In this document: positions 14,169 to 61,639 of the stretch, one piece after another | How positions within the stretch are numbered: the stretch's first letter is position 1 | Layout: every line of letters begins with the position of its first letter | From: Carcharhinus longimanus | Taxonomy: Eukaryota | DNA: 64,000 nt | Assembly: GCA_030264375.1 (NCBI GenBank) | Contig: JASCQW010000162.1 | Location: 82,428,347-82,492,346, forward strand | Direction: 5' to 3' | Made by a program: the position numbers and the translations under genes | Notes under the pieces: generated by a model | What the model was told of the DNA's origin: nothing | Databases searched by the model: none | Seen by the model: only the letters and a program-made list of their open reading frames with translations

Positions 14169-16331
14169 AACTCTTTTCTGGACTCAAAAAAAATCATGTT
14201 TTTGCATATATTCAACATTTCAGACAGCACCCCTGCCCTCCTCACCTTTCAGGTATGACCTGCTACACTTGCATTATAAATCAGCCTCAATTTTTTTCAC
14301 TCTACAAACGTGTGCTTCACTTATCAGTATCTTATAAGTGGGCACAAGAGTCCAAGCAGATGATATGGGCTGTATTTCAAAGACATGGGAGTTAAGGCAC
14401 AGGCATTCTTTGCATTAGATGCCAATGAGACTTCAAAATGGTGACCAGCCCAACCTATGCCCATAGTTCACGTTTGGGCTTGTAAGTTGATTCCCATTTT
14501 TTTTGGAAGGAATTTCTTGAGGCTTCAAATGTTGACTTGCACTTTTGACATCTATGGTCATTGGTAGAACAAGGGGATTTGTAATTATCATTAAATTAAT
14601 AACCCCCACGGCTTAGCAGTCAATGAACTTACTGTTAGAAGTGTCGTTACTGTTGTTTCGTATACGAACAGGACTGTACTTTAGCAGACAGCAAGCGCTC
14701 TCATACAACTAATAACATGAATGGTGACTTCATCTGCTTCATTGGCCCATAGTGTGGGAGTAATGTTGGTCAGGGCAGGGAGAGAACAGCCACTCCTGGA
14801 TGCATACTGCTTCTCCAGCTGAACATTCTTTATCTCCAAGCTTTTATTACTGTCTGCCACACCCTTCTCACTCACTACCACTGTAGAAATTAAAATTAAT
14901 TACACTGTTGCTCTTTTCAAGATATTAAAATTTTTTGAACCATTTACCTCACTATTTATTTACTTGCAATGTGCCAGCTTTTAAAACACAAGCTCAATGT
15001 CATCAAATCACCACTACTTCATTAATCTTTTTATTTAAAAAAAAAATATATTGGGTGCATGCTACACTGTAGACTTTGGCACTTACTGGCTTTCCAATAA
15101 GCGTTAACTCTCAGAATGCACACAAGTAGGACCTCTAATCAATATAATGCTCTGGTTCCCATTCAAAAATGATGAGACCATAAAACTTTATTGTCTGATT
15201 CATACAATTGAGGCCAAGGTGCTTTTGAGATTCTAAAGTAAACGAAGCAGTTTCTGAAAATATAACACTGTGATGGCTCCCAGGGCTCCATTACTGAAAA
15301 CTAATTAAGAATGAATGGCATGGCCATGAAATACTTCTCACCATCACCAGCTGCCATTTACATAAGAGATTGAAAGAGTCGCAGATGAAGTGCTGATTTC
15401 TTAAAACTGTGATATAAGGCATTAATAAGTGAGTTATGTCATTTTAGATTATGCTGTCACTGTGTAGTGAAGATATTTGCCTGCAATTGCCAAACTTCCT
15501 ATCCCTAGTTACCAACATAATTGAATGGATGGTGGGAAGACAAAGAACTTGCCTTATGATATGCCCCATTTCTAAATATAAAGATGATAAATGCTTCATA
15601 AAATCAAAGTTTATTACATAGAGTTTCTGCCTGTAATTGCTGAGTTCCTTTTCCTGCTTTCACCTAGTCCCAATCTAAGTATGCAGTAGTTTTGGGTCCG
15701 ATTCAGCAGTAACTCAGAATCATTGGGAGCAACAATCCTTAGATACCACAGTTGTAGACAGTGCAGGAGCTCTGGAATAAAACTGAAATGTGTATTTTTC
15801 ATGCATCCCAATGGGTTAAACTTTCATCTCGGTCAGAACACACCCAGCCTGATTGAGATGAGTAGGGGCCCTGTCTCATTGAGTCTGGGCCATACCAATT
15901 CAGATCTGTGTGCCATGTACTGTCCCAGAATATACATTAATGGGAACAAATTGAGTATTTTGTTTCGAGGGTCACGATTCTAGAAGAAGCATTTCACTGT
16001 GCATCAAACTTGCAATTTACAAAATGACAGAATCAGATGTTCAAGTGCACAGGTGACTAACATTTTAACATGAAGGGCAGACAAATGCAAAGTATTGCAA
16101 GTAGTGAGGGAAAAGTAGACTATGAGTGGTATTGAAGCATAGCATGAAAAGACGTCTCGAGGTTTTAGTGAGCTCGATACCAGTATTTACCTGTGACAAG
16201 AGGATTGGAGGTTCTTTCTAAAAGGTTTCAGCTAAGGTGGGCCCAATGGACTTCCCTGCTCTTATTTAATAATCTTATTTGGTTAGTATGGGAATTGGAA
16301 CATTTACACAAATAAATTGATTGCTTTCCAG

Positions 16332-16997
16332 NNNNNNNNNNNNNNNNNNNNNNNNNNNNNNNNNNNNNNNNNNNNNNNNNNNNNNNNNNNNNNNNNNNNN
16401 NNNNNNNNNNNNNNNNNNNNNNNNNNNNNNNNNNNNNNNNNNNNNNNNNNNNNNNNNNNNNNNNNNNNNNNNNNNNNNNNNNNNNNNNNNNNNNNNNNNN
16501 NNNNNNNNNNNNNNNNNNNNNNNNNNNNNNNNNNNNNNNNNNNNNNNNNNNNNNNNNNNNNNNNNNNNNNNNNNNNNNNNNNNNNNNNNNNNNNNNNNNN
16601 NNNNNNNNNNNNNNNNNNNNNNNNNNNNNNNNNNNNNNNNNNNNNNNNNNNNNNNNNNNNNNNNNNNNNNNNNNNNNNNNNNNNNNNNNNNNNNNNNNNN
16701 NNNNNNNNNNNNNNNNNNNNNNNNNNNNNNNNNNNNNNNNNNNNNNNNNNNNNNNNNNNNNNNNNNNNNNNNNNNNNNNNNNNNNNNNNNNNNNNNNNNN
16801 NNNNNNNNNNNNNNNNNNNNNNNNNNNNNNNNNNNNNNNNNNNNNNNNNNNNNNNNNNNNNNNNNNNNNNNNNNNNNNNNNNNNNNNNNNNNNNNNNNNN
16901 NNNNNNNNNNNNNNNNNNNNNNNNNNNNNNNNNNNNNNNNNNNNNNNNNNNNNNNNNNNNNNNNNNNNNNNNNNNNNNNNNNNNNNNNNNNNNNNNN
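16332..16997. other. Assembly gap (666 N)
   Basis: Run of N; the largest of several gaps. Confidence 0.99.
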
Positions 16998-17057
16998 GAG
17001 TTGACCTGTCTGTTATAGCTTTTCAGTTGGAGCGAGAGGTCAGTCAGCTCTTAGCAT

Positions 17058-17400
17058 TATAGAATCCCTACAGTGCAGAATGAGGCCATTTGACGCATTG
17101 ACTCTCGTAGCGTATCTTACCCTGATTCTCTACGCTGCCTAATCCCCGTAACCCAACACATTTGCCATGACTAATCCCCGCCCTCTCCAATTTACTCATC
17201 TTGGGACACTTAAGGGGCAGTTAAGCATGGCCAAGTCACCTAACCTGCATGTCATCTGACTGTGGGAGGAGTCAGCAGCATCTGGAAGAAACCCAATGCA
17301 GACACAGAAAAAAGGTGCAAACTCCACACACTAACCCAAGGCCTAAATTGAAACTAGGTTCCCGGCACGGTGAGACAGCAGTGCTAACCATCATGCCACT
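17058..17400 (-). mobile_element. HE1-like V-SINE
   Basis: tagaatccctacagtgcaga tail through gcagtgctaacca head. Confidence 0.85.
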
Positions 17401-21589: not shown

Positions 21590-21837
21590 AGGTAAGACCA
21601 TAAGGCCAAAGGCATAGGAGCTGAATTTGGCCACTTGGCCCCTCGAGTCTGCTCTGCCATTCAATCATGGCTGATATTTTTCTCATCCCCACTCTCCTAC
21701 CTTTTCCCCATAACCCCTGATCCATAATTAATAAAGAACCTATCTATCTCTGTCTTAAAGACGCTCAATGATCTGGCCTCCACAGCCTTCTGCAGCAAAG
21801 AGTTCCACACAGTCACCACCCTCTGGTGGAAGAAATT
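21590..21837 (-). mobile_element. CR1/HER1 LINE 3' end (left half of the host of the Gypsy insertion)
   Basis: Tail gaccataaggcc...ataggagctgaatttggccac...catggctgat; reverse complement of the tail at 19750-19850. Confidence 0.85.
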
Positions 21838-22067
21838 TGTAAAATAACTCCACGGAGGCGAAAGTCCCATGACCAAGTTATTTTGTTTACACCATACATC
21901 AGTACACAGCCAGCTGTCGCATTGCTCCCTGCTGAATGCAAGCTGGGAGTCTCTGCTTTAAATAGGGAGCACGAGGCTCCCTGACTTAACCATCAATTAG
22001 GACTCACCAGGTAGTTCTTTTCATACTCTAGCAAGCCAACCTCATTTGCCTAGCTGAAGTCATCACA
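21838..22067 (-). repeat. 3' LTR (230 bp) of the Gypsy element
   Basis: Starts TGT and ends ACA. Abuts ctcctttcccccctc (22068-22082), the PPT on the - strand. Homologous to 24112-24243 plus 24731-24793. Confidence 0.9.
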
Positions 22068-22082
22068 CTCCTTTCCCCCCTC

Positions 22083-22960
22083 AAAAGTCCAAGGAATCCC
22101 CTTGGTTTGCTTCCCTCAGGTCTTTTCCTCCACTTGAGCGCCAGGTCAGGATCCTCCAACTTGGCCTCTGATGTCAGCGGTGTGTAACATTTGGGTGCTT
22201 TCCTCTTCTGCTGCGACTGCCAGAGGTCTGGTTCTTTGTCCACTTCAGGTGGTAGGAGAATTGTTACAGCTTCATCCCCTGTATCCATTTCGGACCCTGG
22301 GGTCCCCATCGAGGGTGCAGGGGAGACGATACTGGCTTGTTGAGGGGATTTCTGCTCATCCCTAAGGCTGCAGGGTGGACTCCGCTCCGGAATGGGTGGG
22401 GAGCTTAAGGCCCGGACCTGGTCCAGGTGTTTCCTTATCACTGCCTCGCCTATGCGTACTCGGTAGGATACTGGTCCGGTCCTGGACTGGGGCGCAGTTC
22501 CTGTGGTGGCATATGGAGTTGTCCTATAGTCAAATAACCACTTTGAGAGTGTTGTCTCTAATGAGGCCGCTGGCTGTTTTTTTTCAACCCAGCCTTTTAA
22601 CATCTGGACTGCTCTCTCCGCTAGCCCATTTGTCGCCTGGTGATAAGGTGCTGTCATTTGATTTCATAAATTTTGTGAACTCTAGACTGGTGAACACTGA
22701 ACCATTATTGGAAGCTAATACCTCTGGGATCCTGTGTATTGTGAAAAAGGTGCGCAGTTTCTCGACGGTTGCCGCCGTGTTTGCTGCGTTTAGTTCCGAC
22801 GTCTAACTGCTTGGAATGGGCATTATCACCAGAAACATGGACCCCATAAATGGGCCTACAAAATTGCCATGGAGTCGTGACCATGGTCTGCCTGGCCATT
22901 CCGAGTTCAACAGGGTTGCCGGTGGTGCCTTCTGTTCCTGTTGGCATTTCTGGCACTGTC
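22083..22960 (-). pseudogene. Gypsy integrase remnant
   Basis: Minus-strand frames give CQKCQ...WPGRPWSRLH...GPF (zinc-finger end and core start), TAPYHQATNGLAERAVQ and LFDYRTTPYATTG. Frameshifted and internally deleted. Confidence 0.9.
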
Positions 22961-22991
22961 TTACTAGAGAGTGTAAGGAATTAATAATACG

Positions 22992-23665
22992 AATATACAG
23001 AAAGGCCTCTTGGCAGATGCCCAGCTGATCTGCAAACAGGCATTCCGGTTGGTGTTGTTATTAGAAAAAGCGACAAGTGGAGCGCATGAGCTCCAAGGTA
23101 TCCCGATGGAGGTAGAGGCTAACATCAGGGAGACTGGGTTAGGGGATTACCGTTATGGGGCAGGCCACTACATTGCAGCTCTCTGGAAGGATTTGGATAC
23201 GAGGGAGTCCATGTCCATATCCAGACAAGGTCAGGTTAAACCCAGAGTGACAGCAGTTCCTGTAGAGCCCTGCCCAATGTTACATTGCCAGTGTCAGGAT
23301 GCACAGTCATAGCAGAGGAAAAGCAAGCCTCCTAAACCAACATGGCTGAAAAGAACACGTAGGCCGAGGGATAGGAGAATGCACAACCTGGAAGCTCCCC
23401 CTACTTCTGACGAGGAGCAGCTATTGTGCGTAGCGGTGACAAAATCAAAACCCATCAAATTGTCAGTGAGACTGAATGGATGTCCAATTTTACTGGAGGT
23501 CAACACAGGCGCAGCTGGATCGGTCATAGGGGAGACCGTGTTTAACAAGATACGCATTGGACTCCAACCCTTAACCCTGACCAAAACTTCAGCAAGGCTG
23601 AGGACCTATACAGGGGAACCACTGAAAGTGATGGGTACAACCCACGTGCCAGTTGCTTACAGGAA
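22992..23665 (+). pseudogene. Gypsy gag C-terminal part and aspartic protease remnant, inverted relative to the LTRs
   Basis: ORF 23379 gives VRLNGCPILLEVNTGAAGSVIG (DTGA active-site motif, D to N) and LRTYTGEPLKVMG. The upstream frame (LLADAQL.CKQA) is gag-like. Confidence 0.85.
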
Positions 23666-23912
23666 NNNNNNNNNNNNNNNNNNNNNNNNNNNNNNNNNNN
23701 NNNNNNNNNNNNNNNNNNNNNNNNNNNNNNNNNNNNNNNNNNNNNNNNNNNNNNNNNNNNNNNNNATGCCCATTCCAAGCGGTTAGACGTCTAAACTAAA
23801 CGCGGCAAACATGACGGCAACCATTGAGAAACTGCGCACCTTTTTCACAATATACAGGATCCCAGAGGTATTAGTTTCCAATAATGGTTCAGTGTTCACC
23901 AGTCTAGAGTTC

Positions 23913-24113
23913 TACGGTGTAAATAAAGTAACTTGGTGATGGGACTTCTGTCTCCATGGAGTTATTACACAGGCGATGAGGAAAAAAATCAATGACATGA
24001 AGGAACTTGCTGAACCATTGCACATATTGAGGGTAAACCATTGTTGAGAAAAATGCCACTGTTTGGGAAATTGGACTCTTTTGATCCTGCAGTGGAGGAT
24101 TGGACCCAATATA
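23913..24113 (+). mobile_element. Inverted U5 end of the 5' LTR, PBS and gag start
   Basis: 23916-23969 is the reverse complement of the LTR terminus at 21838-21893. It is followed by aggcgatgagga (23971-23982), two mismatches from TGGCGACGAGGA, a tRNA-Ser-type PBS. ATG at 24053 gives MPLFGKLDSFDPAVEDWTQY. Confidence 0.85.
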
Positions 24114-24313
24114 CCATACATCAGTACACAGCCAGCTCTCCAGTTGCTCCCTGCTGAATGCAAGCTGGGAGTCTGATACACCTGCTTTAAATAGAGAGCA
24201 TGAGGCACCCTAATTTAACCATCAGTTAGAACTCATCAGGTACCCCTTTTTGTGTGCTAACCAAATAAAATCAAATTAACTCAGGAACAACTCGAGAAGG
24301 ATTCATCAGGTAC

Positions 24314-24730
24314 ATCTTTTCTGGACCAACCCAGTAAACTAACTCAAACTAACTGAGGGACAAGTTAAAAGAGGCAGATTCCCAAAAGGAGGGGGAAAAG
24401 CCCGAACCAAAAATCAAAGTGGAAAGAAAACTTAAAATAAAGATCATTGTTGGGGTCGATAATACATCCCAGCCCCCGCAGTGCCCAGTGGGTGTGGAAG
24501 ACATCAACTGCGCCCGTGGACACCGCATGCTCCCTCTCCAGGGACACCTGGTTGCGAATGTAGCCGCGGTACAGGGGCAGACAGTTGGGATGGACAACCC
24601 AGTCGATTGCCCGCTGCCTGAACCTATTGATAGTGTGCCTCACCAGGCCCAGGAGCAGGTTCACGAGGAGGTCGCCATCCTGACCTGCCCCTCTCAGCAC
24701 CAAGTGCCCACAGATCAAGAGCGTGGGAGG
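24314..24730 (-). mobile_element. 5'-truncated Tx1-like (L1 group) non-LTR retrotransposon: ORF2 C-terminus and 3' UTR, inserted in the 5' LTR
   Basis: ORF 24365-24760(-) contains DLLVNLLLGLVRHTINRFRQ...CLPLYRGYIRNQVSLEREHAVSTG...W, which resembles the C-terminus of Tx1-type ORF2. T-rich 3' UTR ends in AAAAG. Flanked by imperfect direct repeats ggattcatcaggtac and ggattcattagctat. Confidence 0.78.
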
Positions 24731-24793
24731 GGATTCATTAGCTATTTCACACTCTAGCAAGCCAACCTCATTAGCCTGGCTGAAGTCATCACA

Positions 24794-25110
24794 AAATTCC
24801 TCCTCATCTCTGTTTTAAAGGAATGTCCCTTTAGCCTGAGGTTGTGCCCTTTGGCTCTAGTTTTTTCTACTAGTGGGAACATTCTCTCCATGTCCACTCT
24901 ATCCAGGCCTCATAGTATCCTGTAAGTTTCAATAAGATCCCCCCTCATCCTTCTAAACGCCAACGAGTGCAGATCCAGAGTCCTCAACCATTCCTCATTC
25001 AACAAGCTCTTCATTCCAGGAATCATTCTTGTGAACCTCCTCTGGACTCTTCCCAAGGCCAGCCCATCCTTCCTTAGATATGGAGTCTAAAACTACTCAC
25101 AATACTCCAA
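24794..25110 (-). mobile_element. CR1/HER1 LINE ORF2 C-terminal fragment (right half of the host)
   Basis: Continues 21590-21837 across the TSD. Minus strand encodes the CR1-type VQRRFTRMIPG...RGDLIETY motif. Confidence 0.85.
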
Positions 25111-59400: not shown

Positions 59401-60316
59401 TTCGCATCTCTTTAAATAGTGCAGCTTTGCGGCTGAGCTGGTGGTGGGGAGGTCGAGTCTTTCCTACGTTTGTTCAGCTGTAAGTGTTTGAAAGAGGACT
59501 TTCAGTGGAGTAGCAAGGTTGAAAATGGCTCTGTCAGGATCAAATCAATGTTACATGCTGACTAACATCAAGAGCTGCCTATTCTGAAAACTTGCCATTA
59601 CCCCTGCGACTGCCTCATGAAAATGGCACCCAGTACAGGTTACACTGGAATTGTGCAAATGCAGCCTGGCCACTATTCTGGTACCAAAACAGTACCCATG
59701 GCACTAAAGCTATCGTTGCTATGGAGTCTAATTTTGTAGCCTTTGCATCTTTGAGTTACCTTCTGATTTTGTATCAGACAAAATACTATTTTTCTACCAG
59801 TTTATTTATTTAAAAAATCAACTCTATTTGGTCTACTCATGTCTGAAACCTTGGCTTCTGACTTGCCCTTTTTCCACTCTCAGACCTTATCTCAAATTCA
59901 ATTCTGTTCCAGTTCCTCTTGGTAAGATTCTCCTTTCTACCATGTTTTGTTCAGTAGTTGTAGTTCTTTACTTAGCATGAAATCCTGTGTCGCCTGTTCT
60001 CTTGTCAGTTCTGAATACATTTGTTCGAGAAAAGTCCTATAACCATTCTAGAGGTCCAGGGCCTTTTAAGGTTTGAACAGTTCCACCTCAATATACATGA
60101 AGATTAAAATCTTCCAATATAACCACTTTTTATGAATTTAGTATGAAGTGTTCTTCACAGTGGAACAAAGCATGCACCATCTGAGCACTAAGATGGCAAT
60201 TTGCTTTGATGCCCGTCTCACTTTTCATGCTCACTTGCTAGAATTTCTCATTAATATATCAAGCATAAACTTTTGTAATTTTTCTCAATTTTAATAAAAG
60301 CCACACCAGATTTTTA

Positions 60317-61387
60317 GGCCGGAATTCTCCTGAAAAAATTCTAAGTGTCGAATTTGTTGGAGTTTTCAGTTGGAGTTCAGAGAAGACTCTCCCATACTGT
60401 GGACTACGGAGGTCACTGGTGTGTATATGTGGGCGGGGGCCTATTCTCACCTGGGAAGCTGGCAGCATAGCGCTGGGCAGCCACTGTGCATACATTGATC
60501 TGTCAGTGCCGAGATCGATGCATGTGCAGTGGCCCCACACTGCCAGCCCTCCCAATTGCTGGTCAGCTCAATCGCTGGCCAGCCCTGCATTGCTGATTCT
60601 CCTGAGTCCTCCCATGGCCCGATTGCTGGCCTCCTGCCGCACCCCCCCCCCGCCCCCAAACCCCACCCAACCATTCCCAGGCCAATCCCAAACCCCTACA
60701 CCCCCAACAGCCCATCCCGATCGCTGCNNNNNNNNNNNNNNNNNNNNNNNNNNNNNNNNNNNNNNNNNNNNNNNNNNNNNNNNNNNNNNNNNNNNNNNNN
60801 NNNNNNNNNNNNNNNNNNNNNNNNNNNCCCACACCCCTACACCCCCACCAGCCCATCCCGATCGCTGCCTTCCCTCCTCCGGTCTGCAGAATGGCGGTGG
60901 GAACCCCCAACACACCAGTCTCCCCATCAAGGCCCACCCTTCCATAGGCCCTGCCCCCTTTGCCCATTTTGTGCCCAGGTGCTTCCTGGGCATTGGCACT
61001 TTGTCCCTCGGCACTGTTGGGATGCGAATGCCCAGGGGGTACCTGCCACCTGACCCTCTGGGGAGGCACTCTTTGCCACCCCCCCCCTTAACTACAGCAG
61101 GATCGTACTGCTTATTCCCTACGTGTGGGGAGCTACTATAATCCCTGTTGGAGTGAACCACTCTGGTGGAATGAGAGATGCTAGTGGGCCCAGAGAATTC
61201 AGTCCTAGGCCCGCTAATCCTATTTAAATAACATTCGAATGGATAGGTTAGTGATTTCCTCACCGATTTCCAGCGTTGGGCTGATGCCACTGAAAATCTG
61301 GCTCTGGGAGATGCTATTGCGGTGAGAATGCAAATGCAAACCCTGCGAATAGACCGACGCGAGAATTTCCCGGGAGAATCACGGCCC
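60317..61387. mobile_element. GC-rich non-autonomous DNA transposon (possibly PIF/Harbinger-type)
   Basis: Terminal inverted repeats GGCCGGAATTCTCC and GGAGAATCACGGCC, related to the termini of the 125-bp MITEs. C-rich interior; no transposase visible. Confidence 0.65.
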
Positions 61388-61639
61388 GGATTGTTTGATC
61401 ACTGAGGTCAGGAGGAGTCATTTCCTTCTCAAAGCTACATCGTTTAAATTCAAAATGTACTCGGGCTTTGTTGACACTCCATCCCTTCATGGAGGAGCAG
61501 GAAGTACAACCTTATAATAATGGTAAGAACAATAGTTTGGGGCTGCTATGAATATTCATCTCTGTTCGATACATAAAACTGTGTGGGAGGAGAGGGCAAA
61601 GAATAGGCCAATACATTTGGATTGAGACCTAACTATCAT

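Follow-up and report, generated by a model that had tools for sequence, protein, structure and literature searches.

Why does one LTR of a Gypsy retrotransposon carry three copies of a short motif that its partner LTR carries only once? In the 64,000-nucleotide stretch of Carcharhinus longimanus DNA analysed here (the window), the additional copies enclose two inserts that resemble the 3' ends of Tx1-type LINEs, and the original prediction was that the locus records a shark Tx1 lineage that parasitises a Gypsy LTR. This raises the question of whether a LINE returns to one site in these LTRs, and also that of how a target-specific LINE without an evident promoter would be transcribed.

Tx1 inserts in the window's Gypsy element

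The features of the locus are listed below by window coordinates, strand and description.

21833..21837, unstranded: 5-bp Gypsy target duplication AAATT, 3' side
21838..22067, minus: Gypsy 3' LTR, of the family here named LTR-A
22000..22013, minus: 14-bp target, lone copy, in the 3' LTR
about 22015..22019 (exact register ambiguous), minus: 5 bases more than in empty copies at the nick site, with no duplication
22068..22082, minus: polypurine tract of the Gypsy element
22083..22980, minus: Gypsy integrase region, broken, and 3' untranslated part (the integrase frame is intact in sister copy L186)
22971..24110, plus: inverted scrambled block
24110..24228, minus: portion of the 5' LTR that lies past the target and ends at 24110, where the inversion cuts it
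24193-24186, minus: TATA-like box TATTTAAA of the 5' LTR
24229..24242, minus: target duplication, 3'-most copy
24243..24298, minus: 56-bp Tx1 3' end, of a subfamily unlike its neighbour's
24299..24312, minus: target duplication, middle copy
24313..24730, minus: 418-bp 5'-truncated Tx1, with ORF2 C-terminus and 3' UTR, without a poly(A) tail
24731..24744, minus: target duplication, 5'-most copy
24745..24793, minus: first 49 bases of the 5' LTR
24794..24798, unstranded: 5-bp Gypsy target duplication AAATT, 5' side

The two LTRs (21838-22067, and 24793 back to 24110) belong to a single Gypsy insertion, because AAATT is duplicated at both outer sides. The target element has the TG...CA LTRs, primer-binding site, polypurine tract, short duplication and protease-RT-integrase order of Ty3/Gypsy elements, the relatives of the integrase from a Gypsy copy are Gypsy-type polyproteins, and we take the 5-bp duplication to suggest Mag within Gypsy. 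Sister copies have the order LTR, gag, protease, RT, integrase, LTR. In the window, the inverted block at 22971-24110 runs through the gag end, protease, an assembly gap, an integrase piece, the LTR end, the primer-binding site and the gag start, and the interior has been rearranged in more than one step. A 147-bp integrase piece occurs twice beside the assembly gap, inverted and at 93% identity (22677-22823 and 23766-23912). Long open frames that occur in several frames together at 16228-17062 and 60259-61398 are probably simple repeats, and outside the window an intronless frame of 346 amino acids at L191:1841-2878 resembles a G-protein-coupled receptor by eye.

Read along the minus strand, the 5' LTR consists of its first 49 bases, the target as TAGCTAATGAATCC, the 418-bp insert, the target as TACCTGATGAATCC, the 56-bp insert, the target as TACCTGATGAGTTC and the rest of the LTR. 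A check of the sequence found all four motif copies where they had been reported. The repeated motif, described as about 15 bp long, does occur three times here, but the duplication proper is 14 bp, and the inserts first delimited as 55 and 417 bp become 56 and 418 bp once that length is adopted. The view that two insertions struck one site holds as well, with two independent 5'-truncated Tx1-type ends among three target copies. Each element stops two bases past its A-run (AAAAGA-TG and AAAAGG-GG). Contigs of four public runs, each with a different organism as its label, cross both inner junctions (281-395 bp, 0-12 differences), and therefore the stack is not an assembly artefact; the source of the window may itself be among these runs.

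The reported homology of the short insert to the 3' end of the long one is borne out by a score of 37, against a maximum of 30 over 2000 shuffles. Its origin as a local duplication of its neighbour was considered and rejected, since it scores 76 against L069 and 68 against L176 but 38 against the neighbour, which is outscored as a match by 102 of 420 locus strands. Judged by its sequence, the short insert is of a subfamily other than that of the long insert. An A common to the 5' and middle duplications weakly suggests that the short insert came first, and 3 of 19 ordinary LTR copies have this A too.

The 3' LTR, which had been described as intact with a single motif copy, is not pristine. Ordinary empty copies have GTATGAAC and then the target, and the window's 3' LTR has 5 more bases, which complete the LINE end AAAAGA. 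Extra A-rich bases, differing in their last two positions, are present at the site in 8 of the 30 best-matching unbroken LTR copies, a query-biased set. The 5 extra bases at 22015-22019 are likely a minimal footprint of a Tx1 3' end, and Tx1 ends that similarly have no duplication occur at L073, L181 and L300. Either an aborted insertion or a later deletion across a short match between LINE end and LTR would fit such a footprint.

Genome-wide use of the LTR site

The assignment of the inserted ORF to the Tx1 group is confirmed, as the C-terminus encoded by the long insert matches Xenopus Tx1 ORF2 (E 2e-6). An RT phylogeny agrees, with the RT of a long copy grouping with Xenopus Tx1 at 100/100 in a clade that also joins turtle and sturgeon proteins (26 rows, midpoint root, without named Keno, Dewa, Kibi, Koshi, Mutsu or L1 rows). 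The best named relative of this RT, in which Pfam RVT_1 is found, is Xenopus Tx1 ORF2 (51% identity over 98% of a 308-aa stretch), and one ray protein and one shark protein are closer partial matches. The ORF2 match of long copies extends over residues 1 to 1292, in frames that are broken. Several of these copies match residues 1-233 of the Xenopus Tx1 protein, the N-terminal apurinic-type endonuclease, at 31-49% in translation, and the Pfam endonuclease family was not found in three broken natural frames. Upstream of ORF2 lies an ORF1 with a CCHC knuckle, C-x2-C-x4-H-x4-C, read directly from the broken frames of L216, L226 and L229. Pfam found no match in the ORF1 of L220, where the knuckle H is changed, and returned nothing useful for the window ORF or for the endonuclease and ORF1 fragments.

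The Tx1 copies are 5'-truncated, flanked by target duplications and without LTRs of their own. A first look at the 2.68-Gb genome yields 3288 candidates for the long insert, of which the best is about 80% identical to it, and all Tx1 copies are old and broken. Counted without a shuffled control, a duplication scoring at least 9 is present at the 5' junction in 36 of 71 ends (the junction is unreadable in 6); these are mostly 10-20 bp long and often start 2 bases past the A-run. A poly(A) signal is present in the last 48 bases of none of 70 element ends. Among L094-L163, 3'-end subfamilies differ in the dinucleotide that follows the terminal A-run (GC 28, GA 12, AC 6, CA 6; n=63), a few copies carry target-like bases unlike their 5' duplication, a hint of read-through RNA, and truncation lengths seem to cluster at about 145-155, 190-200 and 310-330 bases at unrelated sites.

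Targeting was counted from both the LTR and the LINE. On the LTR side, an exact 32-base pattern downstream of the site gave 100 matches and 0 reversed-control matches, and the first 72 of the 100 rows, a sample that favours well-preserved sites, were sorted by eye. A Tx1-type 3' end stands directly in front of the LTR-A target in 50 of the 72, while 19 are empty, 2 hold another insert and 1 is unreadable. At two of the occupied sites a gap leaves just the last bases visible, two hold chimeras of Tx1 with other RNA, and several hold inserts of 10-30 bp with a clean duplication. On the LINE side, an exact 34-base 3'-UTR pattern gave 125 matches, of which 70 loci were analysed; 3 rows left out of this set were all LTR-type, so the omission is conservative. 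A script whose reversed-sequence controls stayed under threshold assigned 27 of the 70 ends to the homologous position of LTR-A, -B or -C, and sorting by eye, which added L103 and L123, gave 29.

With 27 of 70 ends at a homologous LTR site, the 3' flanks are not heterogeneous in the manner of random insertion, and more than 20% of them are of one repeat type, the proportion used by Kojima (2015) to recognise targeting. The prediction of an LTR-targeting Tx1 thus stands as a preference spread over at least three LTR families and falls as strict sequence specificity, since 43 of the 70 ends were not called as LTR sites. The LTR has 1806 first-look candidates, and for 20,000 LTR copies (ten times 1806) and a five-base window, arithmetic gives a chance rate well under 1/10,000 random insertions. 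In the numbering of LTR copy L039, the Tx1 3' junction is fixed between positions 49 and 50 and is preceded by GTATGAAC or a close variant in all three LTR families; the short duplication covers 50-63, TATTTAAA 99-106 and AATAAA 183-188. The nick site is therefore 50 bp upstream of the TATA box, and the inserts lie in the LTR's own orientation. A Tx1-clade LINE has almost certainly inserted again and again at this one site in related Gypsy LTR families. A long copy ending in the U5 of LTR-A, near position 196 (L024 / L091), marks a second site in the same LTR. Contigs of runs X17-X20, labelled as other organisms, have Tx1-type ends at the same LTR position as L296 (with loose ends), and suggest that the targeting is common to genomes beyond this one.

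Other RNAs have been placed at the same target. A 7SK RNA copy (L314:892-1190, which is also the start of L328) matches the whole Rfam model at 169.5 bits, is flanked by duplications and has the closing bases of a Tx1 3' end as its own terminus; this chimera likely arose by template switching. Two more inserts at the target finish with Tx1-type last bases as well: one is vault-RNA-like (L286:793-893; 28.1 bits, where the gathering score is 34), the other, in L291, is tRNA-like, although ARAGORN made no call for it. An LTR-C target holds about 245 bases of Tx1 5' UTR on their own (L333:465-711), without a 3' end and with a 15-bp duplication, which suggests that the Tx1 machinery can place RNA that has no normal tail.

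LTR-derived heads and a candidate borrowed promoter

The 5' ends of full-length copies bear on how such an element could be transcribed. Using the Tx1 head as query, we scored all 27 candidates with a 5' UTR. In 12 of them (L296, L297, L298, L299, L300, L305, L308, L312, L314, L316, L319 and L321), LTR sequence that includes the TATA box lies directly upstream of the Tx1 5' UTR, and L280, from a separate search, is a thirteenth such copy. The point of switching from LTR to head varies from about 142 to 214 and in the LTR-C case is the LTR end. Five of the 27 begin without a TATA box, at about 120 (L306), 127 (L302 and L303), 134 (L310) and 136 (L324); one of these starts directly after a normal short duplication, and three abut other repeats, so that their starts are less sure. 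The other 10 are truncated, unreadable, at a contig edge, with another head, or probably chance matches. With the TATA box starting at 99 and what we take to be textbook spacing, transcription would be expected to begin (+1) near 129.

The head itself resembles a decayed R/U5, with at most 11 of 500 shuffles reaching the observed score in five of six copies (L241 is not significant), and a rough script found AATAAA absent from 13 of 17 heads and flagged it in 4. For headed copies, identity drops to 0.56 past position 171. Upstream, across positions 63-133, identity is 0.834 among six headed copies versus 0.874 to 27 ordinary LTRs, a comparison set biased towards alike copies. An inherited, Tx1-specific U3 is thus unsupported, as this stretch is no more alike among headed copies than to ordinary LTRs. 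The heads of L296, L314, L319 and L321 gave no match to a ribozyme family or to U1, U2 or other snRNA. Contigs from four runs guessed to be RNA cover the LTR part of L296 and leave the LTR-to-head junction uncovered, and carry no weight either way. L260 has a full-length 5' end with an LTR-C-like head end, and L250 and L246 (= L228) have a common head unlike all three LTR families, perhaps from a further host.

Some full-length copies also have LTR sequence on both sides. L330 has LTR positions 3-164 in front and 46-230 behind, so that 50-164 is present twice, a 115-bp duplication with 103 of 110 positions identical. Past the short duplication and as far as the TATA box, its two flanks have 4 rare variants in common, a number reached by 1 of 4950 random LTR pairs. 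In L225 (LTR-C) the LTR remainder lies on both sides with 156 of 184 positions identical, near the 87% of LTR pairs, and L328 has the same two-sided layout (142/162) with a single shared rare variant, which is not significant, as 1424 of 4950 random pairs do as well. An LTR remainder follows the copy in three of the five TATA-headed copies with a visible 3' end and was not seen at the visible 3' ends of L226 and L280, nor at those of L213 and of L218, a copy that begins at 134 behind a normal duplication. In the six head-bearing copies viewed at both ends an assembly gap lies between the ends, and joins may be wrong in either direction; L213 has no such gap. Two further long-copy 3' ends fall in unreadable stretches (L276/L277 and L326). 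The tally for the long duplication is one copy that shows it, two that are consistent with it and two in which it was not seen.

Target-primed reverse transcription combines an apurinic-type endonuclease with an RT. In the cycle that we propose, the ORF2 endonuclease would nick the LTR at 49/50 and prime reverse transcription there. A truncated cDNA would close with the 14-bp duplication, which restores the target site and would therefore allow further copies to stack. Full-length RNA would start at the LTR start site, at about 127-136, and therefore begin with captured R/U5 whose poly(A) signal has mostly been lost. The end of a complete cDNA could then pair with its counterpart in the target LTR, the R/U5 that lies 90-180 bp downstream of the nick. 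Because the homology is downstream, annealing would give the new copy a duplicated TATA-bearing stretch at its front, and the poly(A) signal absent from the element would come from the LTR remainder that follows the copy. For R2, annealing of target-derived RNA 5' sequence has been postulated (PMC3774820, the text as available to us). On the layout of these copies, full-length elements probably use the target LTR as a promoter that is re-duplicated at each jump; the supply of polyadenylation by the LTR remainder would be a somewhat less secure part of this reading. The fullest version, in which a promoter-less LINE would run its whole cycle on a foreign LTR, taking promoter, head and poly(A) signal from it and switching host by re-capture of the head, is one towards which we lean only slightly. 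An internal promoter in the Tx1 5' UTR may be the alternative to a borrowed one.

That alternative is part of the strongest competing explanation, which accepts the targeting and attributes the long LTR repeats to recombination or gene conversion after insertion, between Tx1 heads and other LTR copies, with the head as an old 5' transduction. The heads are homologous to R/U5 and the LTR copies number in the thousands, the switch points are variable, L226, L280, L218 and L213 have LTR on their 5' side only, and L328 has no private-variant signal, all of which speaks for such exchange. The flanks of L330, however, come from one LTR allele, unlike the outcome of exchange with a distant locus, even though local conversion could give both; five copies start near the predicted LTR +1; and most heads are without a poly(A) signal, as read-through would require. 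We consider recombination unlikely, while giving it real weight.

Considerably less probable is a loose endonuclease preference in which build-up in LTRs comes from open promoter chromatin or from a tethering promoter-binding factor, with sequence recognition secondary. The 38 scored non-LTR sites do agree only in T or A at +1 (35/38) and C at +3 (28/38). The target also forms one arm of an inverted repeat, CCTGAT ... ATCAGG (window 24229-24242 and 24209-24214; also in L142 and L225), whose far arm reads CCAATCAG in LTR-B and -C, a CCAAT-box-like word. Chromatin by itself would not produce a junction that is base-exact in three diverged LTR families and re-used within stacks. The idea that the junctions descend from a small set of founders, multiplied by the Gypsy element or through segmental duplication, can be practically set aside. 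A Tx1 lodged in 3' LTR U3 would indeed travel with the Gypsy RNA, an insert there being copied with the element RNA in LTR elements, but the diversity of junctions largely refutes descent from few founders: insert lengths, truncation points and 3'-end subfamilies vary between loci, the window element's two LTRs hold different inserts, and both LTRs are unbroken in two whole Gypsy copies.

If the target LTR does serve as a re-duplicated promoter, targeting and promoter supply would be a single step, performed by an RNA whose head is homologous to the DNA just downstream of the nick. Target choice would then be tied to a selective benefit beyond that of a safe harbour, homology-directed 5' joining would explain the long target duplications, and there would be a testable answer to how a target-specific LINE with no evident promoter gets transcribed, a question that PMC4494074, the one paper on LTR-preferring Tx1 families, leaves open. 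An occupancy of about two-thirds would weigh heavily on the Gypsy family. The system also presents an apurinic-type endonuclease whose site, inside a polymerase II promoter, is exact to the base, and an unusually dense case of one transposon parasitising another. Homing itself is ordinary for Tx1, and promoter re-borrowing is the part worth pursuing; that the copies are fossils limits the surprise.

Comparison with known target-specific LINEs

We found no literature account of a Tx1 that occupies LTRs in sharks, nor of any Tx1 that duplicates a promoter; one may exist in Repbase, Dfam, the supplements of PMC4494074, Kojima and Fujiwara 2004, Christensen 2000 or subscription papers. Tx1L of Xenopus laevis sits in the DNA transposon Tx1D (PMC4494074, PMC6719617, available text). 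Tx1L (ORF2 = UniRef YTX2, P0006), of the same clade at 100/100, is like shark Tx1 in targeting another transposon, and differs in that its target is a DNA transposon whereas that of shark Tx1 is an LTR promoter. Closer in habit are the crocodilian families Tx1-8_Crp and Tx1-4_AMi of the Tx1-Mar group, which prefer LTR retrotransposons as shark Tx1 does (Kojima 2015, PMC4494074, available text), although the available main text names no LTR family, site or promoter duplication for them. According to the same text, families of the Tx1-Mar group cluster with Keno, the head of Tx1-4_AMi is derived from U1, and the transcription of the related SINEU is left open, with flanking transcription suggested (PMC4494074). 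For shark Tx1, here compared with Tx1-Mar by description only, four head loci gave no U1/U2 match, and the one alligator protein in the RT tree falls outside the Xenopus-Tx1 clade.

Mutsu and Keno are Tx1-type elements of 5S and U2 genes (PMC5340908, PMC4640811, available text). Like shark Tx1, they have precise 3' junctions in a multicopy target and, as far as that text goes, subfamilies that match target variants, but their targets are host RNA genes whereas that of shark Tx1 is a transposon promoter. R2 carries 28S sequence at its RNA 5' end (PMC3774820, available text), where shark Tx1 has an LTR-derived head. R2 also differs in its restriction-like endonuclease, its ribozyme and the position of its homology, which is upstream of the nick and in shark Tx1 downstream. 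R9 of bdelloid rotifers, the element of Gladyshev and Arkhipova 2009, is said to make an exceptionally long target duplication. R9 is related to R2 and targets rDNA, whereas in shark Tx1 long duplications occur only with full-length copies and are variable in length. LTR-preferring Tx1 families were already known, and what appears to be new here is the proposed promoter re-borrowing, together with genome-wide counts.
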